Assembly (NCBI GenBank): GCA_041675205.1
Contig: JBAYUF010000005.1
Location: 6,159 to 70,158, forward strand
Direction of reading: 5' to 3'
DNA from: Patescibacteria group bacterium
Lineage (GTDB): Bacteria; Patescibacteriota; Patescibacteriia; GWA2-46-9
Length of the DNA stretch: 64,000 nt
A model generated the notes under the pieces. It made no database searches. It was given only the letters and a program-made list of their open reading frames with translations, and had not been told where the DNA came from. The first letter of the stretch is position 1; each line of letters starts with the position of its first letter. The translations under genes were made by a program, and so were the position numbers. Positions 8,138-62,168 of this stretch are shown piece after piece.

Positions 8138-8860
8138 ATGAAGATGCCGATAGTTGTCGCCAATTGGAAAATGTATTTGAACGTACCTGAAAGTGTTGCC
8201 TTGGCTCAGAAACTGGTGCGGGCACCGCGTCTGCCTGTTACGGTCGTCGTTTGCCCGAGCGCTATAAGTATCTCAGCCGTGGCTGATATTCTGCGGGGTA
8301 GCGCTACCAGCCTTGGTGCGCAGTTGGTTAACACAGCGGTACGCGGTGCGCATACGGGGGGTGTATCGGCGGCAGATTATGCTTCTCTTGGTGCCACCTA
8401 TGCCATTGTTGGCCATTCAGAGGTACGTCGACGAGAGGGAACTGATGTGCATGCTTTGCGTGAGCAGTGCCTAACAGCACTCGCCAATGGCTTGACGCCC
8501 ATACTATGCATTGGGGAGACGCTGGAGCAGCACAATGAAGCAAGCTCGATACTGCGTGAACAATATACACAAGTAGTTGGTTCAGGACTCCCTGGTTCTT
8601 TTTTGGTTGCGTATGAGCCACTATGGGCAATCAGCGCCACGTCCGGCGCGCATCCGCTGTTAATTGAAGACGTTGCCGAGTCTAGTGCACTGCTTCGGTC
8701 GTTTATTGATGACGCGGTGCCTGTTTTGTATGGCGGCAGCGTGGACCAAACAAATGCGGCAGGGTTCATCGGCGCACATGGTTTTGATGGTGTACTCGTT
8801 GGTGCGGCGAGTACCGAGGCGGTTTCATTTCAAAATATTATTGCTCAAGTAGCTCGTTAA
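8138..8860 (+). CDS. tpiA: triosephosphate isomerase
   Basis: ANWKM N-terminus; catalytic loop AYEPLWAIS/GT; about 240 aa. Confidence 0.9.
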   Translation: MKMPIVVANWKMYLNVPESVALAQKLVRAPRLPVTVVVCPSAISISAVADILRGSATSLGAQLVNTAVRGAHTGGVSAADYASLGATYAIVGHSEVRRREGTDVHALREQCLTALANGLTPILCIGETLEQHNEASSILREQYTQVVGSGLPGSFLVAYEPLWAISATSGAHPLLIEDVAESSALLRSFIDDAVPVLYGGSVDQTNAAGFIGAHGFDGVLVGAASTEAVSFQNIIAQVAR

Positions 8861-11344: not shown

Positions 11345-11500
11345 ATGTCCCAGGATAACCTGATAAAATTGGAGTGCACGGTTTGCAAGCGTGTTAACTA
11401 CCATACTTTTAAGAATAAGAAGAAGATTAAGGAGCGTCTTGAGATCAAGAAGCACTGCGAATGGTGCAAGAAGCACACGTTGCATAAGGAAACGAAGTAA
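11345..11500 (+). CDS. rpmG: 50S ribosomal protein L33 (51 aa; absent from the ORF track because it is under 60 aa)
   Basis: Translation [51 protein letters not shown] shows the L33 CxxC...CxxC zinc ribbon and the [10 protein letters not shown]-terminus. Sits just upstream of tRNA-Trp as in many bacteria. Confidence 0.85.
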
Positions 11501-11620
11501 CTAGTCGTGGATGGCTTATGGCAAGTAGCTGTAAGTAGCATTCATTCCGGGAAAGAATTAAACTATCAGGGTGTTATGACAATCTAGCGTTGCCATTTGC
11601 CAATGGCCTTTGCTAACTAC

Positions 11621-11694
11621 GGGGGCGTAGTGAAGTGGCATCATGCGGGTCTCCAAAACCTAAGTCGTAGGTTCGATTCCTACCGCCCCTGCCA
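11621..11694 (+). tRNA. tRNA-Trp (anticodon CCA), CCA encoded
   Basis: Acceptor GGGGGCG/CGCCCCT, D-stem GTGA/TCAT, anticodon stem CGGGT/ACCTA with loop CTCCAAA, T-arm GTAGGTTCGATTCCTAC, discriminator G. Confidence 0.75.
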
Positions 11695-11695
11695 G

Positions 11696-11735
11696 AAAAA
11701 TCCGTCACCATTTGGTGTACGGATTTTTCTGTTAT
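11696..11735 (+). terminator. intrinsic terminator hairpin (AAAAATCCGT...ACGGATTTTT), A- and T-flanked
   Basis: Perfect 10-bp stem flanked by an A-run and a T-run. A second, near-identical copy lies at 14652-14690. Confidence 0.7.
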
Positions 11736-11860
11736 TGGAAGGCGGAGTCGAACCTGGGGAAGGGGTCGGGGAACGGGAGTTCCCCGTGGCGGAATTATTC
11801 AAACCGAGGGGTTTGAAAGAGTCGCGGAGCGACGATGGTTCTAGCGAAGCGGATTCTACC

Positions 11861-11882
11861 GCCCCTGCCAGTTTGAGCTAGC
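11861..11882 (+). repeat. direct repeat of the tRNA-Trp 3' end (GATTCTACCGCCCCTGCCAG), att-like
   Basis: Matches 20/21 nt of tRNA-Trp positions 11674-11695. A further partial copy (CATCTACCGCCCTTGCCA) lies at 16262-16280. Confidence 0.7.
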
Positions 11883-11996
11883 ACAAGAAGCATCGTTTCA
11901 AGAGAGTACACGTTAGGATCAATACCCAGGCGAAAGCCTGGGTATTGGCGTATTAGGGCGAAAGAATTGAATTTGCATATATGATATTATGTCCTT

Positions 11997-12755: not shown

Positions 12756-12765
12756 ACAGAGTCCG

Positions 12766-12856
12766 CTCGAGGTGCATTGTTTTGATCATTGAAACAAGGC
12801 CCCAAAAGCCTTACTGGTGTTGACCGATTGAGGTTCGATCTCGAGGTGGCCTGCCA
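12766..12856 (+). repeat. structured intergenic repeat, family A, copy 1 (CTCGAGGTG...GGTTCGATCTCGAGGTGGCCTGCCA)
   Basis: Aligned by eye with four other copies. Conserved ends and a central AAGGC/GCCTT hairpin; the 5' hairpin varies in sequence but keeps its structure. Confidence 0.75.
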
Positions 12857-13032
12857 AAAGAGTTCTGTCTGTGAAAGGCCTTTTTAATACAGTAATCATT
12901 GACAAGGGATGCCTTTTTCCATACAGTGCTGCTCGTCGTGGATGTAGAAGATTCGTAAGTTTCAATTCACAACTCAGGGCTTGGTCGGCTCTGACCCACA
13001 GAGAAGCCGAAGAAATTCGGCAAGGAGGAACC

Positions 13033-13614
13033 ATGACCGCAATCCGAAGAGTAGTTGATATGCTGGGGCTCAATTGCTTGCCGTTACTCGTCTCGTTCCG
13101 CAAGGCACATGACGATCGACGGCAGGGAGGTGCTCGCAAGCCGCGTCGCATCGCGCCTCGTGTGCTCATCCGCTGCGGATGCTGCAAGCAACGCGTCGAG
13201 GTGTGTGTTGATGAGCATCCGACGGGAGATCCTCATGTTGACATGCTCGAAATCAACGGCGTCTATGGCAGCATCGACCAGTGGCGACAGGTGCTGCTGC
13301 CACTCCTCGGTGTACCGATGCCGGACGCTGAGCGTCGCGAAGCTCGTCTCGCGCTCGTTCGCCGTCGTATGGTGAACGACGGCAGGATGAGGGAGGCGGG
13401 AGACTGCAGATCGTGTGGCGATCCGGCGGAAGAGCCTGAAGGCGAAGACGTTCCCGCCGGTCTCTGTTCGGAGTGCCAGGATATGCAGAAGAAGGGCTGG
13501 CTCAGCAACACGGAGCCCTCGCGACCACTGGTGCCACGCGCATCGGATCGGAGAGAGCCTCTTACCCGAAGTGGCCCGGCGTATTCGCTTTACGATCCAG
13601 CGCGTCAGGGCTGA
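13033..13614 (+). CDS. Cys-rich hypothetical protein in a high-GC cassette
   Basis: Roughly 62% GC against about 40% in neighbours. Strong SD (AAGGAGGAAccATG). Multiple CxxC pairs (CGCCKQ, CRSCG, CSECQ). The track ORF extends upstream to 12871. Confidence 0.5.
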   Translation: MTAIRRVVDMLGLNCLPLLVSFRKAHDDRRQGGARKPRRIAPRVLIRCGCCKQRVEVCVDEHPTGDPHVDMLEINGVYGSIDQWRQVLLPLLGVPMPDAERREARLALVRRRMVNDGRMREAGDCRSCGDPAEEPEGEDVPAGLCSECQDMQKKGWLSNTEPSRPLVPRASDRREPLTRSGPAYSLYDPARQG

Positions 13615-13626
13615 TCGAATGTGCGT

Positions 13627-13680
13627 GGGGCGGGTTCGGTTGGTTGCAACAAGCTTCCGACCGACCCGCCCTTCGTCCTT
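13627..13680 (+). repeat. GC-rich imperfect palindrome, family B copy 1 (GGGGCGGGTTCGGTTGG-TTGCAACAAGCTT-CCGACCGACCCGCCC)
   Basis: Long imperfect inverted repeat with a conserved loop. A second copy at 24810-24866 follows the other high-GC cassette. Confidence 0.65.
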
Positions 13681-13711
13681 TTCAAACATTTTTTTATTTG
13701 AAGTTACTGAG

Positions 13712-13803
13712 CTCGAGGTGCGGCGTTTCGTTCATCTAAAATAGACCCCAAAAGCCTTACTGGTGTTGACCGATTGGGGGTTCGGTCTCGAGGCGGCCTG
13801 CCA
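13712..13803 (+). repeat. structured intergenic repeat family A, copy 2
   Basis: Same ends (CTCGAGGTGC ... CTCGAGGCGGCCTGCCA); hairpin GACCG...CGGTC fully paired in this copy. Confidence 0.75.
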
Positions 13804-13848
13804 AAAGAGTTCTGCCCGAGGAGGGCGGGACTTTTTTGTTTTTATTTT
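13804..13848 (+). terminator. intrinsic terminator (AAAAGAGTTCTGCCCG-gagga-GGGCGGGACTTTTTT)
   Basis: GC-rich stem with G-U pairs, A-run upstream and T-run downstream. Related copies at 12857-12885 and 16281-16320. Confidence 0.65.
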
Positions 13849-14486: not shown

Positions 14487-14560
14487 ATAAATATTATCAT
14501 AAATAGGAACTCGTGATCGGGCCGTGTCACTTTTGTCACTTTTCACTAAATCCGCAGGTG

Positions 14561-14651
14561 CTCGAGGTGTGTCGTTTTGATCATCGGAAAAAGGTTCCAA
14601 ACGCCTTACTGGTGTTGACCGATTCGGGTTCGGTCTCGAGGTGGCCTGCCA
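14561..14651 (+). repeat. structured intergenic repeat family A, copy 3
   Basis: CTCGAGGTGT...GGTCTCGAGGTGGCCTGCCA, followed directly by the AAAAATCCGT terminator copy. Confidence 0.75.
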
Positions 14652-14690
14652 GAAAAATCCGTCACCGTTTTGGTGGACGGATTTTTCTGT
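14652..14690 (+). terminator. intrinsic terminator, second copy of the AAAAATCCGTCACC...ACGGATTTTT hairpin
   Basis: Near-identical to 11696-11735. Confidence 0.65.
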
Positions 14691-15844: not shown

Positions 15845-15935
15845 CTCGAGGTGCATCATTTTTGCCATCAAAATAAGGCCCCAAAAAGCCTCACTGGTGT
15901 TGATTGATTGGGGTTCGATCTCGAGGTGGCCTGCC
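15845..15935 (+). repeat. structured intergenic repeat family A, copy 4
   Basis: Begins immediately after the TAG stop at 15842-15844. Hairpin 3 carries compensatory changes (GATTG/CGATC). Confidence 0.75.
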
Positions 15936-16420
15936 GTAGAAGGAGGAGTGTCCGAATGGCTGTTCGTCTTTTCTGTTATATGAGTTGTCTAGACAGGTGT
16001 GTGTGCCTTCACTATACTACTTACTATATGGATGAATCACTTATCATACAAAAGCTGGTTTCCTTGGATGAAAAGATTAGTGGTATTGCGACTCAAGACA
16101 GCCTGATAAAACTTTCTGATGACATCACGCAGGCACTTGATGACCAGCTTGTTATTTTGCAAAGATTGGATTAAGAGAGGCTTTTCACTATGGAACGAAT
16201 AAAGAGAATTGAAGCGGATGTTGAAGAATTAAAATTACAACTGAAAGTGGCTTAAGAGCTTCGACTTCATCTACCGCCCTTGCCAAAAGAGTTCTGCCCG
16301 TCGGGGCGGGACTCTTTTTACGTGAGAGAATATTGAAAAAGAGGGTATTTTTTATTGTAGAAAGATAGTACAGCGAGAATCAGAGGTATGGTAAACTGAT
16401 TTTGCTGACTAAATGACTCT

Positions 16421-16939: not shown

Positions 16940-18424
16940 TTGGACTCACTACGTAAGCGAAATATGAAGTTTGATAATTTTGAAATTTACGAAAGAATTT
17001 ATAGTAGCCATTGGTTTCTGACTTCCTACAATGGAATCGGATTTATTTTTGATTTCCCAAAAATCGGCGGTGGCAATTTTCTAAAGAAAGTCATTTATGT
17101 GATGGAAAATCAGATGTGTCGCTATATATTTAATCATAAGGAGTTTGAGCTGGCTGCCAACTATACTGCCGATAAATTAATCAATAATAACAAATGGAGA
17201 AAAGAAGTTTACGAAAAAATTGATTATTTTACAAAACAGTATTTTGATGCAGGAGAAAATTTAAGAGATTCAAATTTATCTTTGCTCTCTAACAAAGAGC
17301 TAATTAAACGCATTCGACGAATAATTGTTTTTCAGCATTACCATCAAGTCTACAGTGTTTTGGCCAATGGAGTAGTTTTAGATGGCCGCAATCATATGTC
17401 GAATAAAATTCGAGATGAATTACGAAATAATTTAAACTTCCCTCCGAAGTTTGAGAATTATTGGAGCACATTAACTCAAATTACGAGGATGAGTCTTCGG
17501 CAGAAAAAAGATTATGAAATTTCTCTTTTAGCAAAAAAGGTTGGAATACTAACTCAGAAACAAATTGAATCAAAATTAAAAAAGCTGCATAAAGAGTATT
17601 GTTGGCTCGACTATAATAATATGGGACCGGCAACGTCGTTTGATGCGTTTCGACAGCAACTTAAAATGGCAAAGCGGAGCGATAAGGACTTGAATGTACC
17701 GAAGCGTTTGGCAGTTTTGAAGAAAAAACAAAGACAATTGATGTCTACATTGAAATTTAACCGAAGGTCTAGATTTTTGATTGCATTAGCCCAACAGGTG
17801 ATTTGGCAGAAAGGGTATCGAAAGGATGTTCAGTATCATGGATTTTATTGCTATGAGCCCTTGTTGCAAGAGCTCGTAAGAAGAAAAAAAGTTTCTGATT
17901 GGCAAACATTGAGTTTCCTATTCCCTTGGGAACTTGAGGGTTATATAAAATCAAATAAACCGACCACTGCTGAATTGGAACAAAGGCGCAAGCTTTCAGT
18001 CTTTATGGTGACAAGAGCGGGACATTCAATCATGGTAGGAAAAAAAGCAAAGATGACTGTAAAAAAATTTGGATCACTTGAAAATTTTACAAGTGTAACC
18101 GAAGTAAGGGGTCAAGTTGCGTATACAGGATTAGTTCGCGGTAAGGTTAAAATCATTCAAACTCCGTCAGACATGGTCAAAATGAACAAAGGGGATGTTC
18201 TCATGTCCCAGGCAACCAGTCCTGATTTACTGCCCGCAATGAAAAAAGCTGGTGCAATTGTTACGAATACCGGTGGTTTAATTTGCCATGCTGCAATAAC
18301 TTCTCGCGAATTAAAGATTCCTTGTGTAGTTGGCACAGCAAAAGCAACCTTAGTCTTTAAAGACGGAGATTTGGTAGAGGTTGATGCAACTAGCGGAGTC
18401 GTAAAAATAGTAAAATCAGAATAG
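16940..18424 (+). CDS. PEP-utilizing-enzyme mobile-domain protein, paralog 2, with larger uncharacterized N-terminal region
   Basis: C-terminal GDVLMSQATSPDLLPAMKKAGAIVTNTGGLICHAAITSRELKIPCVVG is homologous to the C-terminus of 14774-15844. AT-rich. Confidence 0.6.
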   Translation: MDSLRKRNMKFDNFEIYERIYSSHWFLTSYNGIGFIFDFPKIGGGNFLKKVIYVMENQMCRYIFNHKEFELAANYTADKLINNNKWRKEVYEKIDYFTKQYFDAGENLRDSNLSLLSNKELIKRIRRIIVFQHYHQVYSVLANGVVLDGRNHMSNKIRDELRNNLNFPPKFENYWSTLTQITRMSLRQKKDYEISLLAKKVGILTQKQIESKLKKLHKEYCWLDYNNMGPATSFDAFRQQLKMAKRSDKDLNVPKRLAVLKKKQRQLMSTLKFNRRSRFLIALAQQVIWQKGYRKDVQYHGFYCYEPLLQELVRRKKVSDWQTLSFLFPWELEGYIKSNKPTTAELEQRRKLSVFMVTRAGHSIMVGKKAKMTVKKFGSLENFTSVTEVRGQVAYTGLVRGKVKIIQTPSDMVKMNKGDVLMSQATSPDLLPAMKKAGAIVTNTGGLICHAAITSRELKIPCVVGTAKATLVFKDGDLVEVDATSGVVKIVKSE

Positions 18425-18514
18425 CTCGAGGTGCGTCGTTTTCGTCTTCGAAACAAGGCTCCAAACGCCTTACTGGTGTTGACCGACCGGGGTTCGATCT
18501 CGAGGTGGCCCGCA
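18425..18514 (+). repeat. structured intergenic repeat family A, copy 5
   Basis: Starts right after the TAG stop. Its 3' end is degenerate (GGCCCGCA instead of GGCCTGCCA). A terminator hairpin CTGCC-ttaaac-GGCAG-TTTTTT follows at 18523-18551. Confidence 0.7.
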
Positions 18515-18598
18515 GCAACAAATCTGCCTTAAACGGCAGGTTTTTTATTACTCAAAACGACAGGCATCGTGAAGTTAGAACTGTGATAGAATGTATGT

Positions 18599-22396: not shown

Positions 22397-23347
22397 GTGA
22401 CGATGATTCTAGTCCCGCTGTGCGGGACGGATTCAACTATTTCCGAGCCGCTCCTTGTTACGATACGAGACATAGTTGAGTACCTCAAAATCCTATTTAT
22501 GCGATACGATTACAAAATTAGCCGCGCTGTTTCATTCGCCATTGAAACGCACGAAATTAACCAAAAACAAAAGCGGAAGGGAAAAGATATTGCCTACATC
22601 ACGCATCCTCTCACTGTTGGGCTTATATTGTCGCGCTGCGGTGCTAGTGACGAGGTCGTAGTGGCGGGCATACTGCATGATACTGTTGAGGATAGCGTTG
22701 ACGATCACAAAGTAACTATCGCGATGCTTCAAGAACGTTTTGGTAAGAAAGTTGCTGAACTCGTTACTAGTGTCACCGAAACAAACCGAGCGCTGCCATG
22801 GAGTGAGCGCAAGCGTGAAGCACTCGAACATGTTGCATCATTTTCACATGAGGCGTTGCTGGTGAAATCCGCCGATGTCATTAGTAATGCAACCGAAATC
22901 ATAGATGACCACAAGCATGATGGCGACTCAGTGTTTGCTCGTTTTAATGCGCCAAAGATTGATGTTCTTCAGAACTACTTATGGGTAATTACGGCCATTA
23001 TTAAATGTTGGCCAGACAGCCCACTTGCAGAAGACTTGCGTTCCGTTGCTAATGGACTACAGGATATGGCTGCGCTTCATTTCATGCAGAACCATCGAGC
23101 TATTGTTATTGAGTATCGGGATTACAGTGAAGACATGCCTATTCAGTGCCCGGTGTGTGATTGGAGTGGTACGCCCAAGGAAAGTGGACTCCTCAATACT
23201 GACAGCCAGGCAGCGCTTGATGTCTCCTGCCGTAATTGCGACAAGATTCTGCTCGTCGTAGAGTATGCCTCTGGCAATGAGGTGGGTAACGAAAGTGAGA
23301 TTGCATTTATTCCCAAGATGAAAAAGAAAATGGACGAAAGTAGCTAG
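22397..23347 (+). CDS. HD-domain phosphohydrolase (RelA/SpoT-type ppGpp-hydrolase-like) with C-terminal CxxC...CxxC zinc ribbon
   Basis: AVSFAIETHE...GKDIAYITHPLTVGLIL...GILHDTVED (HD motif); CPVCDW...CRNCDK at the C-terminus. True start may be the Met at 22499. Confidence 0.55.
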   Translation: MTMILVPLCGTDSTISEPLLVTIRDIVEYLKILFMRYDYKISRAVSFAIETHEINQKQKRKGKDIAYITHPLTVGLILSRCGASDEVVVAGILHDTVEDSVDDHKVTIAMLQERFGKKVAELVTSVTETNRALPWSERKREALEHVASFSHEALLVKSADVISNATEIIDDHKHDGDSVFARFNAPKIDVLQNYLWVITAIIKCWPDSPLAEDLRSVANGLQDMAALHFMQNHRAIVIEYRDYSEDMPIQCPVCDWSGTPKESGLLNTDSQAALDVSCRNCDKILLVVEYASGNEVGNESEIAFIPKMKKKMDESS

Positions 23348-23611
23348 GCATTGCTTCGAAGCACTTTCTTTTTAAGCTAGAGTGATCCTGGATCAAGCAC
23401 CGCAAGCGTTTTCAAGTCTGGTACATAAAATCCGTTTGACTGCCGTATACTGGTTCTAACGTCCTCTATGATGCCCGCCAGTTTGAGCTAGCACGAGAAG
23501 CATCGTTTCAAGATAGTTAGAAATCAACACCCAGGTGAAAGCCTGGGTGTTGATGTTTGATAGGTAAACCAGAAAAGTTTGGAACTGTGATAAAATTACA
23601 TAATGCAAGAT

Positions 23612-24101
23612 GTTAACTTTTCAGTTGATGGAAAAAAGCTCACAGGTAACACTTTTTTCCAGAAACACTTCAGTTAAAAAATCCAGCCGCTTTGATTATT
23701 CATGGATGGGAGAGTAAACAGGACAGAGGTTTTTTATTAGCGGAGGCGCTCGCTGAACAACGTGACTAAAAAGTTTTATCACAAATTGCCAGGAGGGGGA
23801 GTTGAGGAAGGTGAAGACATTGAGACTGGATTGCGTCGAGAATCGTTTGAGGAGATTGGTTGTACAATTGAGTATATTCATGAGCTAGGAACTATTGAAG
23901 AATATCGAAATGAATGCAGAAACGGGGGAGGTCGGCATCAAATCTCACATTGCTTCATCGCCGAAATTGCTGGAGATACTTGAAGTTGCTATCGAGAAAT
24001 TAGAAAGCGAGGCAAGTGTTGAAGATTATGAGGGCAAATTTATAAGATTAAGAGATCTTTTGTTTCTTAAAGAAGCAAGTTCGTGGATGCAGATCAATTG
24101 A
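23612..24101 (+). pseudogene. NUDIX hydrolase pseudogene (at least two frameshifts)
   Basis: The Nudix box LPGGGVEEGEDIETGLRRESFEEIG lies in one frame while the N-terminal and C-terminal segments continue in other frames (23612-23677, 23762-23983, 23895-24101). Confidence 0.55.
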
Positions 24102-24259
24102 AGCCCCTTCTTGATAGCTGTTGTTCTGCTGTGAGGTGGTTTTTAATAATAAAGTAATCATTGACAAAGAAAGTTTTTTTCAATAAGGTGTTGCTCGTCG
24201 TGGATGCGGAACGATTTTTAAAAACGAAGAAAGATTCAAATATTCGGTACGGAGGAATC

Positions 24260-24778
24260 ATGAACGAGGTGAAAACATTGGCACAGGTCTTGGCAAGGAT
24301 GACCTCAGAATTCATGCAAAGCGAAGCATTCAGGTTTCTCGCGAACCGGAGGCAGTATACGAATGAAGTGGTGCGTCGCGTCGATACATCCATCCCTGAG
24401 CTGAGGGTATTCGTTCAGGCAGTTATCTGTGTCTTCGGTAACAGAGGTGCTAGTGGGCTCACATTTGCCCTGGGTATCATCTTCCACTTGGTGGACCAGG
24501 ATACACCAAGTCGGGTGTGGCTTGAAAAGCACTTGCTGTTGCTTGATGACGAGATTGTCGAGAGGGCCGTCGACACGTTGCAGGAGGAGCCCCGCTGTCT
24601 CGTTGCTGCGGGTGAGCGTTCATCCGCAGGTGCTTATGAGGTTGCGGGCACTATAGAAGGCATGGGTACTTTCGAGGGTGAAGATGCAGCCAGGGGCGCA
24701 TTTGCAATCTTCGGATTACTGCAACAACTCGACAATGCACCCGCTGATGACGATCCTGGCTCTGCGTACTTGATTTAA
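24260..24778 (+). CDS. hypothetical protein in the second high-GC cassette
   Basis: About 60% GC. Strong SD (ACGGAGGAATCATG). Upstream promoter and leader are homologous to those of the 13033 cassette. Confidence 0.5.
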   Translation: MNEVKTLAQVLARMTSEFMQSEAFRFLANRRQYTNEVVRRVDTSIPELRVFVQAVICVFGNRGASGLTFALGIIFHLVDQDTPSRVWLEKHLLLLDDEIVERAVDTLQEEPRCLVAAGERSSAGAYEVAGTIEGMGTFEGEDAARGAFAIFGLLQQLDNAPADDDPGSAYLI

Positions 24779-24809
24779 TCACCACGGGTAACACTCAGTG
24801 GTGCTGACA

Positions 24810-24866
24810 GGGGGGCGGTCTGATTGGTTGCAACAAGCTTCCAAACGGCCCGCCCCTCGTCCTGTC
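24810..24866 (+). repeat. GC-rich imperfect palindrome, family B copy 2
   Basis: GGGGGCGGTCTGATTGG-TTGCAACAAGCTT-CCAAACGGCCCGCCCC, with the same loop as 13627-13680. Confidence 0.65.
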
Positions 24867-24908
24867 CAAATATTTAATTTTCATTTGAAACCATAGTTCT
24901 CAAGGTGG

Positions 24909-24991
24909 CCTGCCATCAGACATGACCCGTGAACTCGGGTCTTTTTTGGTAGAGAGGAGTAGCACATGGAACTGTGATAGTATTCGTACGT
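24909..24991 (+). promoter_or_regulatory. terminator-promoter junction module, copy 3 (extended -10 TGATAGTAT)
   Basis: GGCCTGCCATCAGACATGACCCGTGAACTCGGGTC...CACATGGAACTGTGATAGTAT. ATG at 24992 lies 8 nt after the -10. Confidence 0.55.
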
Positions 24992-25615
24992 ATGGAACTA
25001 TTTCTAACATCGAGCGTTCACGCTGTGGCGCAAGACATTGCCAAGAAGATTAACCTTGTTAAGGCAAACAAGCTAGTGTTTATCACTACTGCCGCTGAGC
25101 CGAAAGAGGAAGGGGATTTAACCTGGCTTTATAACGATAGACAGGCGTTGGTCGATGCTGGCTTTAATGTCGTTGATTATACAATTACTAATAAGAACAA
25201 AAGCGAGCTAGAGCGTGACCTTGAGGGTTTCGACTACATCTATCTCTCAGGAGGGAATACCGCTTATCTTTTACAACAATCTCAAAAATCAGGATTTGTT
25301 GCTTTGGTAAAAGAACTCGTTCAGAAGAAAGGTAAAGTCTACATCGGGACTAGTGCAGGCTCAGTCATTGCCGGGCCGAGACTCTCTGATTACTACATTG
25401 ACGAATCAACAGAGTTGGAAGACAAAAAAGGATATGGGTTTGTAAATTTTACAATTGTTCCGCATTGGGGTTCTGGTGATTTTAGAAAAACGTACTTAGG
25501 CGAGAGATTGAAGATTGTGTATAAAGAAGATCAAGTGCCCCTACTTCTTCTTACTGATAATCAATACGTTCACATAAAAGATGAGCAGATGAAGATCATT
25601 GATGTGAAAGAGTAA
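24992..25615 (+). CDS. S51-family peptidase (dipeptidase E/cyanophycinase-like)
   Basis: LSGGNTAYLL and GTSAGSVIAGP motifs. Confidence 0.6.
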   Translation: MELFLTSSVHAVAQDIAKKINLVKANKLVFITTAAEPKEEGDLTWLYNDRQALVDAGFNVVDYTITNKNKSELERDLEGFDYIYLSGGNTAYLLQQSQKSGFVALVKELVQKKGKVYIGTSAGSVIAGPRLSDYYIDESTELEDKKGYGFVNFTIVPHWGSGDFRKTYLGERLKIVYKEDQVPLLLLTDNQYVHIKDEQMKIIDVKE

Positions 25616-25629
25616 ATCGTGAGTTTTTT

Positions 25630-25740
25630 ATGAAGTTGCTAAAAACAATAAGTGATACAGAAAACCCACCCTGGGGGTGGGTGGGTGGGAAAAGGTGAGG
25701 ATATAGAGACCGGGTTGCGCACGAGACAATCTGCTAGAAG
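25630..25740 (+). pseudogene. NUDIX gene remnant carrying a G-quadruplex-type G-run
   Basis: GEDIETGLRTRQ Nudix-box fragment, homologous to 23800-23860, placed out of frame behind GGGGGTGGGTGGGTGGG (25673-25690). Confidence 0.45.
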
Positions 25741-25822
25741 ATAGTGAGTAGCAACCTTGTTGAATAGTAGGACAGCGATTATTCCGTAAGGCTTGATGTA
25801 GGACGGAGCCCCATACCTCGAT

Positions 25823-26128
25823 TCAGGGGCCTAAGGTGAGCAACAACAATTGAAACAGCAAGGGAACACCGAGCAACACGATACCCCAGCCAATACCTCG
25901 CCCGAGTTGGATCCATGGAAAGGGGAGCCTTTTGGCCAGTACACCCGGAAGCAAGATGCCTATTACGATCAGAGGCAACCAGATAATCTCGCTGCGAACA
26001 CTCGACCTGAATGTAGCCTGAAAGAACAAGAAAACGGTAACAGTGAGCAGGAGTAGAGAAGGGCTTACCAGAAAGCCGACTACGTATTGAATCAACGGGT
26101 AACGATATCGGGGTGTCATATGAATCAA
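25823..26128 (-). CDS. small multi-TM hypothetical membrane protein
   Basis: Strongly hydrophobic 101-aa ORF, preferred over the overlapping 169-aa frame. Low confidence. Confidence 0.3.
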   Translation of the reverse strand: MIHMTPRYRYPLIQYVVGFLVSPSLLLLTVTVFLFFQATFRSSVRSEIIWLPLIVIGILLPGVLAKRLPFPWIQLGRGIGWGIVLLGVPLLFQLLLLTLGP

Positions 26129-26334
26129 GTATACGCTTGGTGGACCGGTGACTGTGTGGATAAGTGGTGTCGAGCCGGCCGGAGAGTGAACGTCGGGATC
26201 TTGGCGGTTCCAGCCGTCGACGGGGCGGATTGGCTTCGTTCAGCAATTCTTCCGACTGACCTGCTCCTCGTCCTTCTCTGACCTCCAAAATAGTTCTCGC
26301 TAGGATGAAATTTTAATTATGTTAGAATAAAATC

Positions 26335-28934: not shown

Positions 28935-30068
28935 ATGCGTACAAATTCACAAGTTATATTAGGAGTGATTGTGGGCGCTGTTGTTGTTGCCGCCTTGGTT
29001 TATGCTTGGCAGCGTTTCGCAGTGTCTGACGAACCGCAGCCAATTAATTCAATTAATAAACTGGGCGAAGCCTTTCAGCAGGAGGGGAACCTTGTTAAAG
29101 ATGGTCCAGGCTTCAAGCCAGGTGTTTGGTATCTCATATATGAAGCGCCGGGGCAGCCGGGTTTGAGTGTTGAACTTTCTTTTGATGCAAATAGTACCTG
29201 TGTGATATTAGAAAAAAGCTCGGCTTGTCAGCTGTCCGATTTACAAATAGGGGACCGCGCAGCAGTGGAAGGCTATATCTTGGAATCGTTAGTGAATGTA
29301 GAAAAAATAATAGTGATTTCGCGAGCAGACCAAGTTCCGGATAAAAGCGATCTCATTCAAGCAACCATGCCTGTCGCAAATCAAGTCGTTGCCAGTCCGC
29401 TTGTGATTGCAGGAAAAGCGCGTGGCACCTGGTACTTCGAGGCATCATTTCCCGTAAGTTTGTATGACGCCAATAATAAACTTTTGGGGTCCACGCCTGC
29501 GCAAGCCGAGAGCGACTGGATGACGACGGAATTCGTGCCATTTAGGACAACGTTAACGTTTACGAAACCAACAACCGCAATCGGAACGTTAGTGCTTCAA
29601 AAAGATAATCCATCCGGCCTGCCAGAGCATGACGATGAGCTTCGCATTCCTGTTACGTTTTCAACGGCAACGCGACCCATAAAACTCTATTACTATAATC
29701 CCAATCTCGATAAAGACGGCAGCGGTAACATTTTATGTTCTGCCAACGGGTTAGTGTCTGTTGAGCGAGTAATTCCCGTTACCACAGTACCCATTCAAGA
29801 CACGGTTCGACAGCTGTTACGTGGGGACCTAACGGTTACGGAAAAAATACTGGGCATCTCAACCGAGTTTCCGCTGGCAGGTGTTGAGTTGGAGGGAGTG
29901 TCACTTTTGAACGGCGTCCTTACATTAAATTTCAGCGATCCTCAGAACAGGACGGGTGGCGGTTCTTGTCGGGTGGGCATTTTGTGGGCGCAAATTGAAG
30001 CTACTGCCAAGCAATTTCCCGAAGTGAAAAGTGTCCGTTTTACGCCAGAAGAGCTTTTTCAACCGTAA
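28935..30068 (+). CDS. membrane-anchored GerMN/Gmad2-like domain protein
   Basis: N-terminal TM; C-terminal GerMN-like segment (LLRGDLT...GVSLLNGVLTLNFSD). Confidence 0.5.
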   Translation: MRTNSQVILGVIVGAVVVAALVYAWQRFAVSDEPQPINSINKLGEAFQQEGNLVKDGPGFKPGVWYLIYEAPGQPGLSVELSFDANSTCVILEKSSACQLSDLQIGDRAAVEGYILESLVNVEKIIVISRADQVPDKSDLIQATMPVANQVVASPLVIAGKARGTWYFEASFPVSLYDANNKLLGSTPAQAESDWMTTEFVPFRTTLTFTKPTTAIGTLVLQKDNPSGLPEHDDELRIPVTFSTATRPIKLYYYNPNLDKDGSGNILCSANGLVSVERVIPVTTVPIQDTVRQLLRGDLTVTEKILGISTEFPLAGVELEGVSLLNGVLTLNFSDPQNRTGGGSCRVGILWAQIEATAKQFPEVKSVRFTPEELFQP

Positions 30069-60691: not shown

Positions 60692-60852
60692 GGCGGTGTA
60701 GATAGGGTAGTTACCATTGACTTTTTGAATAAAAAGTAGTAATTTCTTTGGTCGCCTACAGTCGTAGGGGGCCAGCTTTTCTCGTGAGTAACGAGACTAA
60801 GTTGAGCTGAATGTTCACTGACAATCAAAGGTTTTTAGAAGGAGAAATTCCG

Positions 60853-61056
60853 ATGGCCGAGAAATCTGAGACGAAACAGCCGATGGGGTTTGTTTGCCCT
60901 GGCTGGGCAAAGCCTCACTGGAATGCCCTCGAGTGCACTATCGAAGAGTGCACCGACGGCAGTCACGTCGTGCTGGACCACTCGTTGAACGGCGTGACCA
61001 TTTATGCCGGTGCAACGCGTAAAGATTGCAGCGACTGGCTGAATCCCTACTGCTAA
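60853..61056 (+). CDS. small Cys-containing hypothetical protein (high-GC module, gene 1)
   Basis: SD (AGAAGGAGAAAT) before the ATG at 60853. About 58% GC. Confidence 0.4.
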   Translation: MAEKSETKQPMGFVCPGWAKPHWNALECTIEECTDGSHVVLDHSLNGVTIYAGATRKDCSDWLNPYC

Positions 61057-61096
61057 CCTTCGCTACTGCGAAGCTGACTAAGAAACTGGAGGAACC

Positions 61097-61684
61097 ATGA
61101 ACGGGATATTTTCCATGACCCAGTTCCTCCAGGAATACCCTGAGGTGCTGGACCCACGTCGATTAGTCGACGATGAGGAACATTACCGGCGATGGATTGC
61201 GGCGCGAGAAACGCTCGTCTGGAAGGCCTACGCCGCCAGAGAACGAGCAATTTCGTATCGCGGCTTTAAGGTAGGGTGCGCCGTTTACGCATGGCGACCA
61301 TATCGAGAAGCCAAAGAAGCATGGCAGGTTAGCGAAGACCCCGCTGACTACATGGGTGTCCGGTGGACGACGTTCACTGGGGCAAACATGAAGACGGCAG
61401 AGGATATTCGCCCAGTTTGCGCCGAACAAGTGGCAGTTTCCGCAGCTCGTATGGCTGGCTATACCCGTATCATTGGGATTGTCGTTGTCGGCGAACCGCA
61501 AACTGACCACGATAGTGGACTCAGCCACAGAACGCTGCACCCGTGTGGCGTTTGCAGACGAACCCTTGCTGCACTTCCAGAGGTGCATGGCGACACTCCA
61601 ATTCTGACCGGAGGAATCGATGGAGACGTCATTCATCTCGAAGAGTTCAGCTTGGACGAGCTCGTGCAGTTGCACGAGATTTGA
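61097..61684 (+). CDS. CDA-fold zinc-dependent nucleotide/nucleic-acid deaminase-like protein (high-GC module, gene 2)
   Basis: CAEQVAVSAA (C/H-A-E) and HPCGVCRRTL (PCxxC) zinc motifs. Strong SD (CTGGAGGAACCATG). Confidence 0.55.
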   Translation: MNGIFSMTQFLQEYPEVLDPRRLVDDEEHYRRWIAARETLVWKAYAARERAISYRGFKVGCAVYAWRPYREAKEAWQVSEDPADYMGVRWTTFTGANMKTAEDIRPVCAEQVAVSAARMAGYTRIIGIVVVGEPQTDHDSGLSHRTLHPCGVCRRTLAALPEVHGDTPILTGGIDGDVIHLEEFSLDELVQLHEI

Positions 61685-61710
61685 TGGTCAACCAACAAGG
61701 AGAAGAAACC

Positions 61711-62013
61711 ATGAAACCAACACGTGTGGTCGTCATCGACGACGGCCCCGAAGGCCTGAAAGCGTACCTCGGTACGCTGGATGGAACGGGGACTGTCTAC
61801 TTCACCCGTTGCGGTGACGGTGGATGCCCGGTGACTCAAGCCGACCCCTCCGAACTTCCGGCGGACGGCTGGGTCGAGAGTGTCGGCGGCGACGAGCTGC
61901 ACGTCGACGTCGAGAACGTCCGGATTAGTCTGGACGACGGCCGCATCAAGTGGGACGTCAGCTGTGACTGGTTCGAAGTCTCACCGCAGCCCCTGAGCCC
62001 CGACGAAGCCTGA
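61711..62013 (+). CDS. small hypothetical protein (high-GC module, gene 3)
   Basis: SD (CAAGGAGAAGAAACC) before the ATG at 61711. 100 aa, acidic. Confidence 0.4.
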   Translation: MKPTRVVVIDDGPEGLKAYLGTLDGTGTVYFTRCGDGGCPVTQADPSELPADGWVESVGGDELHVDVENVRISLDDGRIKWDVSCDWFEVSPQPLSPDEA

Positions 62014-62168
62014 GTCAGCCACCCGGCGACGAAGACAACCTACAATCAGAAGACCCCCGCATCGCTTGAAATAATAGTGGTGTCGGGGTCTTTAAACTTT
62101 ATGAAGTAAAAATGGCGTTTAATGATAGGCTCGCCCCACAGCGAGCCTTCTGCTATTATTCTTTCACT

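Follow-up and report, generated by a model that had tools for sequence, protein, structure and literature searches.

Why should two unrelated genes on one bacterial chromosome be enclosed by homologous promoter and 3' hairpin sequences? This question is raised by a 64-kb stretch of a Patescibacteria metagenome-assembled genome (GenBank assembly GCA_041675205.1, contig JBAYUF010000005.1), hereafter the window, which was analysed over its whole length and to which all coordinates refer. Two units of the window, c1 (12862-13803) and c2 (24123-24915), each comprise a predicted promoter and leader, a cargo open reading frame (ORF) and a long hairpin. An earlier note, made from the sequence alone, had described c2 as a second copy of the c1 architecture, a 'cassette' with a different cargo, and had proposed that the two be aligned. 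The alignments bear this description out: both ends of the units are homologous, and the genes between them are unrelated.

Homologous ends around unrelated genes

The two units were compared by local alignment and with a repeat finder, and alignment scores were set against a background of random window pieces (median 15-16, 95th percentile 21, 99th percentile 22-23, maximum 33). The 5' module (12862-12953 in c1, 24123-24216 in c2; about 92 nt) reached a local score of 80 and the 3' module (13627-13702 and 24812-24889; about 76 nt) one of 84. At each end the repeat finder returned an ungapped 65-nt stretch that is 82% identical (repeats D6 at the 5' side and D3 at the 3' side). Both ends are thus far above background, and the similarity is not confined to short motifs. 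The cargo proteins are unrelated (BLASTP E 1.9). The long identical cores within the modules are no more conserved than a divergence of about 18% allows; the chance of a 19-nt run free of mismatches in 65 nt is estimated at about 0.2.

In c2 the homology starts 21 nt past the stop codon of an upstream pseudogene fragment. The c1 promoter (TTGACA, a 17-nt spacer and TACAGT) is the highest-scoring promoter-like site between 11 and 30 kb. The promoters of c1 and c2 had been called the same, which holds for TTGACA and for the 17-nt spacer but not for the -10 box, where two positions differ. A shared 17-mer had also been placed in the leader; 15 nt of it are exact, one base of the 17-mer differs, and the exact core lies across the start site, at about -6 to +10 relative to the predicted transcription start (about 24196 in c2, 12934 in c1). 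The core would therefore cover the predicted discriminator, the start site and the first transcribed bases, and appears promoter-proximal rather than deep in the leader.

The Shine-Dalgarno (SD) contexts of the two cargos are CAAGGAGGAACC-ATG in c1 and ACGGAGGAATC-ATG in c2. The 5' module stands in different reading frames relative to the ORF in c1 and c2 and is, for that reason, taken to be non-coding; the same frame difference rules out a longer ORF whose N-terminus the module would encode, the arrangement assumed by the 205-aa NCBI model of cargo 2. That public model (24161-24778) starts at a TTG within the -35 hexamer, and the SD-preceded ATG at 24260 agrees with the length and the N-termini of four homologues; the database start is probably wrong. 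No significant shared structure was found in the leader folds of c1 and c2 (z -1.4 and +1.4), and a shared leader structure or riboswitch was dropped on that ground. Part of the core, GUCGUG(G), matches the complement of the start-codon region of the same unit, 12935-12941 to 13031-13037 in c1 (CCAUGAC) and 24196-24202 to 24259-24266 in c2 (CAUGAACG, with one bulge). Such pairing of the 5' end with the AUG could gate translation or could be a coincidence, given that the leader folds are not significant.

The 3' module contains hairpin B, represented by B1 in c1 and B2 in c2. Its loop holds an identical 19-mer, TTGGTTGCAACAAGCTTCC, with exactly two occurrences (0.02 expected by chance). On the sense strand B1 folds with -39.8 kcal/mol (z -6.4) and B2 with -36.2 kcal/mol (z -4.75); the folds of the opposite strand are 4-6 kcal/mol weaker (about 4 for B2), owing to several G·U pairs. 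This strand asymmetry points to a role at the RNA level, and B2 is probably a terminator, an attenuator or a 3'-end stabilizer. What had been described as the same 3' palindrome is indeed homologous in both units, but its stem is imperfect and includes G·U pairs, as RNA hairpins do, and it is not a perfect DNA palindrome. A UUUU(U) run follows shortly after the stem in c1 and in a related unit from another contig (L155, see below), c2 is without a proper U-tract, and a terminator scan did not call hairpin B. Rfam gave nothing for the leader, the hairpin or the D1 repeat described next; its matches were limited to tRNAs.

After hairpin B both units continue into CTCRAGGTG-GGCCTGCCA, the GGCCTGCCA of c2 being 24907-24915. 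The same sequence also closes the five copies of a repeat, D1, in the gene array that holds c1 and c2, and six array copies stand against 0.10 expected. The end of c1 carries a full D1 unit. The end of c2 has a short form, a single CTCAAGGTG plus GGCCTGCCA, and is followed by D2, a module of seam, terminator and promoter with 3-4 copies in the array. The note had held that this junction links two element families, which is correct: the CTCRAGGTG-GGCCTGCCA end is common to both units, with D1 in c1 and D2 in c2.

D1 is 106 nt long and occurs at 12765-12870, 13711-13816, 14560-14665, 15845-15950 and 18424-18529. It begins within about 10 nt of an upstream stop codon. Inside it a sequence is repeated in direct orientation (CTCGAGGTG...CTCGAGGTG), and its end, GGTTCGATCTCGAGGTGGCCTGCCA, resembles a tRNA 3' end and is followed by a terminator. 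D1 may be a remnant of an attachment (att) site, a 3' untranslated region (UTR) element or a small RNA. It was rejected as a structured RNA (positive RNAalifold covariation term, compensatory changes in 1 of 30 pairs) and ruled out as a miniature inverted-repeat transposable element with target-site duplication, the same 9-mer flanking every copy.

The note had suggested a search for additional cassettes; species-representative genomes, metagenomes and viral contigs gave no further true copies, and all that emerged was a decayed third hairpin B within the window (Table 1). No 5' module, intact ORF or upstream relics accompany this third copy, which is probably the relic of a third cassette. 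The 600 nt before it (25616-26290) hold no intact ORF on the + strand, and a 169-aa minus-strand ORF called there by gene finders is unlike a real protein. Cassette is here the name of a repeated shell and of no more than a putative mobile unit: no recombinase, empty site or additional genomic copy was found. Of the candidates met elsewhere, locus L225 has a reverse-complemented 10-mer of the loop but lies in a high-GC phage structural region and was taken as coincidence, and L234 and L237 were unrelated. The 15-mer leader core had at least 120 matches in the viral collection, which are chance matches, the core being too short for a collection of that size.

Table 1. Coordinates of the features of c1, c2 and their surroundings in the window.
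Feature	Position	Strand	Description
tRNA-Trp gene	11621-11694	+	anchor of the array; 3' end is CTACCGCCCCTGCCA
c1 shell	12862-13803	+	promoter 12899-12927, core 12930-12944, ORF 13033-13614, hairpin B1 13623-13676, D1 unit 13711-13803 ending in GGCCTGCCA
SD of c1	13024-13029	+	upstream of cargo ORF 1
Cargo ORF 1	13033-13614	+	193 aa; GC at third codon positions (GC3) 0.63; possible TraR/DksA-like zinc finger in the C-terminal half
Left limit of c1/c2 homology	24123-24160	+	weak hairpin and T-run (GTTCTGCTGTGAGGTGGTTTTT), AT-rich stretch before the -35 box
Predicted sigma-70-type promoter of c2	24161-24189	+	TTGACA (24161-24166), 17 nt, TAAGGT (24184-24189); match to consensus
15-nt core TGCTCGTCGTGGATG	24192-24206	+	identical to 12930-12944; exactly two occurrences
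Predicted 5' UTR of c2	24196-24259	+	about 64 nt; SD GGAGGA 24251-24256, 3 nt before the ATG
Cargo ORF 2	24260-24778	+	172 aa; GC3 0.57; predicted all-helical; rare family
Hairpin B2	24806-24866	+	long imperfect GC-rich stem-loop with internal mismatches; 13-nt conserved loop region
3' tail of c2	24867-24915	+	homologous to c1 (CAAAYATTT...CATTTGAA); ends in CTCAAGGTG-GGCCTGCCA (24899-24915), tRNA-3'-end-like
D2 module of next gene	24916-24991	+	terminator hairpin and T-run 24924-24947; promoter motif GAACTGTGATAGTAT 24969-24983, 8 nt before the S51 peptidase ATG at 24992
Decayed third copy of hairpin B	26222-26286	+	score 47 against background maximum 33; does not fold (z +0.74)

The two cargos and their relatives

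The C-terminal half of cargo 1 contains CRSC...CSEC, a CxxC-x16/17-CxxC arrangement. Its matches are weak but concordant: the DksA-like phrog_54 with E 4.6e-4 and, over nearly the full length of TraR, the TraR chains 5w1s_M and 6n57_M with E 0.04. No Pfam or NCBIfam match was obtained, and the PHROG matches are limited to this weak DksA-like finger. TraR/DksA proteins are common on plasmids and phages.

Two homologues of cargo 1 were found, both on other contigs, and one of them, locus L155, was analysed in full. The L155 unit consists of TTGATA-17-TAAGGT, an extra 58-aa ORF, a hairpin adjacent to the SD sequence, CAAGGAGGAACT-GTG, a 172-aa ORF and an end of the form GGGGCGGGA...TCCCGCCCCTCGTCTTTTT. 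Its ORF is 57% identical to cargo 1 (MAFFT; the truncated model P0003 gives 53% by BLASTP over 61% of the query) and conserves the cysteine arrangement. The SD context of the unit (CAAGGAGGAAC) is identical to that of c1, and the unit has a hairpin of the form GGGGCGGG...CCCGCCCCTCGTC. In their DNA, c1 and L155 align over short stretches only, as expected at this protein divergence. The unit has a GC content of 0.57-0.61 within surroundings of 0.35-0.46, and in its host an SD sequence precedes 3 of 14 genes, two of the three lying in the cargo-1 unit itself. L155 may thus be read as an independent replicate of the foreign-looking layout in another SD-poor host. In both cargo-1 units a 6-bp hairpin stands directly 5' of the SD sequence, GCCGAA-GAAA-TTCGGC in c1 (13006-13021) and GCAGAC-ATGAC-GTCTGC in L155 (5857-5873). 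This hairpin is kept in two genomes despite its differing sequence, and c2 is without it.

Cargo 2 appeared to be an orphan in a word-indexed search, a status overturned by an exhaustive HMMER search, which found four homologues of about 170 aa with 22-35% identity. A further match, to the giant protein P0007, was a repeat artefact. With the homologue sequences supplied, AlphaFold predicts an all-helical protein (pLDDT 91, pTM 0.86), and neither the PDB nor viral structure libraries gave a significant match to this model. At the sequence level the family matches no solved structure and has no match in Pfam, PHROG, PADLOC or NCBIfam; the PADLOC defence models gave no matches. Two of the homologues, P0006 and P0008 (loci L257 and L266), lie in units that again run from promoter through long leader, SD sequence and ORF to a long hairpin. 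No repeated modules were found at L257.

Foreign composition and translation signals

The earlier note had called the cargo of c2 a foreign ORF, and three kinds of evidence support this. The GC3 values of the two cargos (Table 1) are the highest in the array, where neighbours have 0.29-0.47, and exceed those of core genes (0.45-0.51), and their overall GC contents are 0.62 (cargo 1) and 0.53 (cargo 2) against 0.36-0.46 for neighbours. Their GGAGGA SD sites are strong: among about 46 annotated genes, with start codons chosen by the analyst, GGAGG 4 nt before an ATG occurs only at the two cargos and in a third high-GC unit (60.7-62.1 kb). At hisG a GGAGG stands at 9-nt spacing, and most genes of the window are without any SD core. 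Finally, the terminal hairpins of the cargo units are unusually long, far longer than the short terminators of host type. Judged by composition and initiation signals, both cargo ORFs look foreign.

The SD poverty of the window agrees with a published survey in which no more than 48% of Parcubacteria 16S genes had a detectable anti-SD motif (PMC9297842). The closest homologues of the S51 peptidase next to c2 are found in Parcubacteria-type lineages, and in one such relative an SD sequence precedes 1 of 17 genes. L155 and L263, the latter from a Yanofskybacteria relative, are likewise poor in SD sequences. A -10-like box lies 5-9 nt before the ATG of 15 of the approximately 46 genes (for example at 8138, 11997, 14774, 18599, 19101, 21699, 24992, 26335 and 30825). 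The motif GAACTGTGATAnnAT occurs at five array genes (18578, 19077, 21675, 23582 and 24969), and four of the five are followed by an ATG after 6-8 nt; at 18578 the annotated start is 6 nt after the motif and an out-of-frame ATG 2 nt after it. Boxes so close to the start codon suggest, as far as sequence can tell, that the host uses leaderless mRNAs.

The third high-GC, SD-led unit (60717-62093) has a promoter of the form TTGACT-17-TAATTT and a leader of about 90 nt. Its ORFs, each with AGGAG or GGAGGA, encode a Cys-rich protein of 67 aa (60853-61056), a cytidine-deaminase-family protein of 195 aa (61097-61684) and a protein of 100 aa (61711-62013), and its 3' end is a long two-tier hairpin (62049-62093, -33 kcal/mol). 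It belongs to the same class of architecture as c1 and c2; homology of its non-coding parts to theirs was rejected, the alignment being at background level.

A gene array anchored at tRNA-Trp

The leftmost 11 kb carry genes of the bacterial core (secY, adk, map, recO, a class II aminoacyl-tRNA synthetase gene, scpA, tpiA, tRNA genes and rpmG). Downstream of the tRNA-Trp gene follow small, unrelated accessory genes, all in one direction, in an array of about 17 kb that is possibly longer. Among them are genes for GNATs, PEP-utilizer proteins, NUDIX proteins, SDRs, HD proteins, an S51 peptidase and an ASCH protein, and both c1 and c2 sit inside this array.

The 3' end of the tRNA-Trp gene, CTACCGCCCCTGCCA, recurs exactly at 11856-11870 and with one mismatch at 16271-16285, so that three occurrences stand against 0.07 expected. 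The array thus adjoins an intact tRNA gene and holds direct repeats of its 3' end, as an island would. A partial copy of the tRNA-Trp 3' end is also seen at 23474-23482. The terminator after tRNA-Trp (11695-11740) is duplicated at 14652-14690, behind a seam at 14651, and a 75-nt module of seam and terminator, X, is present at 11874-11947 and 23483-23552, 11.6 kb apart, with 90-93% identity. The copies of the tRNA-Trp end, the duplicated terminator and the X module are signs of serial insertion and recombination at tRNA-Trp. In all, the intergenic regions of the array hold at least five recurring module families (D1, D2, X, the copy of the tRNA-Trp terminator, and the 5' and 3' modules). Two 5' modules, three copies of hairpin B and three to four of the D2 terminator-promoter all lie within 11.7-26.3 kb.

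Just 5' of c2, at 23610-24101, lie gene fragments, namely the N-terminal part of a hydrolase-like gene, broken by in-frame stops, and a NUDIX domain split over two frames, which indicate gene decay within the array. The usual successors of rpmG and tRNA-Trp are secE, nusG, rplK and rplA. Next to the rpmG-tRNA-Trp region of the window (11345-11694) the accessory array fills this position, and secE-nusG-rplK-rplA was not found in the approximately 52 kb downstream. Loss of uL1 has been reported in some lineages of the candidate phyla radiation (CPR) (PMC9297842).

Proposed autonomous expression units on a shared chassis

With a little more confidence than doubt, we read c1 and c2 as autonomous, horizontally acquired expression units, moron-like or PeSL-like, that use a shared regulatory chassis within a tRNA-anchored island. 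The chassis would begin with a weak upstream insulator hairpin and a sigma-70 promoter with -35 and -10 boxes and conserved sequence across the start, and would continue with a 5' UTR of 60-100 nt ending in a strong SD site. Past the ORF, the long imperfect GC-rich RNA hairpin would stop or attenuate transcription and protect the 3' end, and the tRNA-3'-end-like CTCRAGGTG-GGCCTGCCA would double as the seam between neighbouring units of the array. Differing ORFs would occupy this chassis, in c1 a TraR/DksA-like finger protein and in c2 a novel helical protein. The array may have grown by serial insertion at the tRNA 3' end and then been reshuffled by recombination between regulatory modules, a process that would leave unrelated genes in shells whose promoters and terminators are almost identical. 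The sequence itself shows the homology of the shells, the unrelatedness of the cargos, the RNA-type hairpin, the foreign composition and translation signals, the remnants of tRNA ends and the recurring modules; how and in which direction the units moved, from what donor, and the activity of the promoters and terminators are inferred.

Several results weigh against this reading. A 17-mer of the loop had 33 matches in 185,579 species-representative genomes, none with stem arms and all due to chance. A degenerate pattern of the hairpin found 97 loci in metagenomes, almost all of them on contigs of GC 0.6-0.76 and thus generic GC-rich terminators, and in viral scans neither the loop nor the hairpin pattern had a match, nor did the D1 core or D2. 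Domain scans detected no integrase, transposase or any other recombinase and no phage gene among the ORFs of the 64-kb window, and a phage collection of 50,697 records gave 0 matches by megablast and tblastn. The best relatives of the S51 neighbour are 75-78% identical at the protein level and non-syntenic, so that no empty site was seen. On its left side c2 is without a GCCTGCCA seam; on its right, the hairpin is followed by no proper U-tract, which makes a terminator function doubtful, and a conventional terminator stands 58 nt further on. Any exchange was not recent, as the modules have diverged by about 18%. The SD survey depends on the chosen start codons, and the promoter and terminator activities are predictions from consensus.

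Of the known elements, phage morons of the HK97 gene 15 type, which are defined by their own promoter, their own terminator, deviant GC and a phage context (PMC3594210), resemble c1 and c2 in having their own promoter, one ORF, their own hairpin, deviant GC and a cargo of accessory or unknown function. Here, however, the units lie on a Patescibacteria chromosome, outside any phage or recognizable prophage, with no phage gene in 64 kb. A promoter and terminator sequence common to two units is not a defining feature of morons, and c1 and c2 are SD-led in an SD-less host. PeSL (promoter-early stem-loop) cassettes border ORFans in hyperplastic regions, where they bring about shuffling (PMC2839356). 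In T4-type phages (PMC2839356, PMC4122927) they are like the present modules in their recurring sigma-70 promoter and stem-loop, their place in a variable region near ORFan-like genes and their G·T stem pairs. Recombination between such modules has been proposed to swap genes while the shell is retained, and the closest anatomical match here is D2. PeSL cassettes are nevertheless single compact intergenic motifs, about 50 per phage genome, whereas c1 and c2 have promoter and hairpin at opposite ends of the ORF, in two to three copies and on a bacterial replicon. PeSL recombination also yields insertions, deletions, replacements and mini-circles; no mini-circles or indel polymorphisms were observed here, where the nearest relatives are at most 78% identical at the neighbouring protein and non-syntenic. 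On the reading as moron-like or PeSL-like units, c1 and c2 are therefore of known kinds in an unusual host, and the added point is that their expression dialect differs from that of the host.

Site-specific mobility and other less likely explanations

It is rather unlikely, in our estimate, that c1 and c2 are instead site-specific mini-cassettes, integron-like or like satellite tycheposons. Each would then be a circularizable unit of hairpin B, an att site (CTCGAGGTG-GGCCTGCCA) mimicking a tRNA 3' end, a weak terminator and a promoter, inserted at tRNA-Trp-type ends by a recombinase encoded elsewhere. The boundaries suit such units, for GGCCTGCCA flanks c1 to the left (12848-12856) as well as to the right (13795-13803), the final 17-mer is identical in the two cassettes, and the c1/c2 homology starts 6-8 nt past the left seam of c1 and stops at the right seam. 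Likewise, the array opens at a full tRNA-Trp gene, holds partial 3' ends and has the tRNA-Trp terminator copied after the 14651 seam, and there is precedent for serial integration that leaves partial tRNAs in islands (10.1101/2020.12.28.424599). Against this stand the absence of an integrase of any family within 64 kb, the lack of a left seam in c2 and the divergence of the modules (about 18-20%); no circular junction or empty site was observed. In addition, the D1-type end is identical to the tRNA-Trp 3' end at just 17 of 25 positions, and its T-arm is unable to pair.

The nearest described counterparts differ in similar ways. In the tycheposon islands of Prochlorococcus, where partial tRNAs accumulate as in other tRNA-anchored islands (bioRxiv 10.1101/2020.12.28.424599), an intact tRNA at the start, a streamlined genome, scattered tRNA 3' ends, small unrelated cargo and decay are all as in the array. 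Here, in contrast, the window holds no integrase or hallmark gene, the units measure about 0.5-2.6 kb from seam to seam, and most seams are a different tRNA-like end inside the 106-nt D1 and not the resident tRNA-Trp end. The gene cassettes of sedentary chromosomal integrons are alike in their small, unrelated, one-directional ORFs, each with a related imperfect palindrome, and in repeats that are more similar than the genes. The array differs from them in having no attC signature, intI, attI or Pc, in the units' own promoters, integron cassettes being mostly promoterless, and in seams that resemble tRNA 3' ends. A regular-expression scan for attC over 11.7-30 kb on both strands gave two pairs, both in coding sequence (22431-22481 and 29827-29889), and none at hairpin B, D1 or D2.

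We think it unlikely, too, that the two genes are residents of one host regulon, with promoter, start-site core and 3' hairpin maintained by a host regulator or an RNA-binding factor and with the regulatory regions duplicated locally. Such control would explain why the best-conserved stretches are functional positions (the -35 box with the sequence upstream of it, the discriminator and start site, and the hairpin loop) and why the hairpin stems differ by partly compensatory changes around an identical loop. In both leaders GUCGUG can pair with CAUGA(A)C at the start codon, which would be in keeping with translational switching. The similarity nonetheless reaches well beyond the motifs, into the upstream hairpin, the spacer and the 3' tail as far as the seam, and this favours a common origin of entire modules. 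In GC3 and initiation signals both ORFs depart from the rest of the genome, the cargo-1 unit recurs as a compositional island in the L155 host, the leader folds are not significant, and the identity runs are compatible with a uniform divergence of 18%.

Less probable again than a regulon is an extension of the mini-cassette idea, by which the shells would be the backbone of tiny integrative gene cassettes of Patescibacteria, a class not described before, with a circular form of hairpin B, an att site mimicking a tRNA 3' end, an insulator, a promoter and one SD-led ORF, inserted serially at tRNA-Trp by a recombinase acting in trans. If such a class were real, it would in function be an integron analogue that imports its own promoter and ribosome-binding signal into SD-less or leaderless hosts. 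It might also mark genes that use another route of initiation or that pass between hosts that have an anti-SD sequence and hosts that do not.

Very improbable is that hairpin B acts at the level of DNA, as a repeated extragenic palindrome or a site of recombination (REP/BIME, that is, a repetitive extragenic palindrome or bacterial interspersed mosaic element; attC; or an end of the IS200/IS605 insertion-sequence type) with the promoter similarity secondary: the hairpin is imperfect, bulged, 3' of ORFs and present in three copies in 13 kb, one of them decayed, but it stands at one end only, folds 4-6 kcal/mol better on the sense strand, has no match among the 185,579 genomes and, like the intergenic modules, no RYYYAAC...GTTRRRY framing, and IntI, RAYT and TnpA are absent from the window scans. 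REP/BIME elements typically number tens to hundreds of copies per genome and often come with a RAYT; the 64 kb analysed here hold three copies and no RAYT-like ORF.

Significance

Patescibacteria (CPR) have tiny genomes, and little is known of how they gain and express new genes. If c1 and c2 are moron-like or PeSL-like expression units, the window holds a tRNA-anchored island built from reusable regulatory modules, which suggests that such cassettes may help reduced genomes to acquire and express genes. The dialect of the shells, with -35 and -10 boxes, a long leader, a strong SD site and a long hairpin, stands against that of the host, which is SD-less, apparently leaderless and furnished with short terminators. 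If confirmed, the units would be a concrete example of modular regulatory cassettes behind CPR gene flux and a handle on translation initiation in lineages reported to be without an anti-SD sequence. They would also bring to light two uncharacterized protein families, of which the TraR-like one may act on RNA polymerase and the other has a confidently predicted new helical fold.

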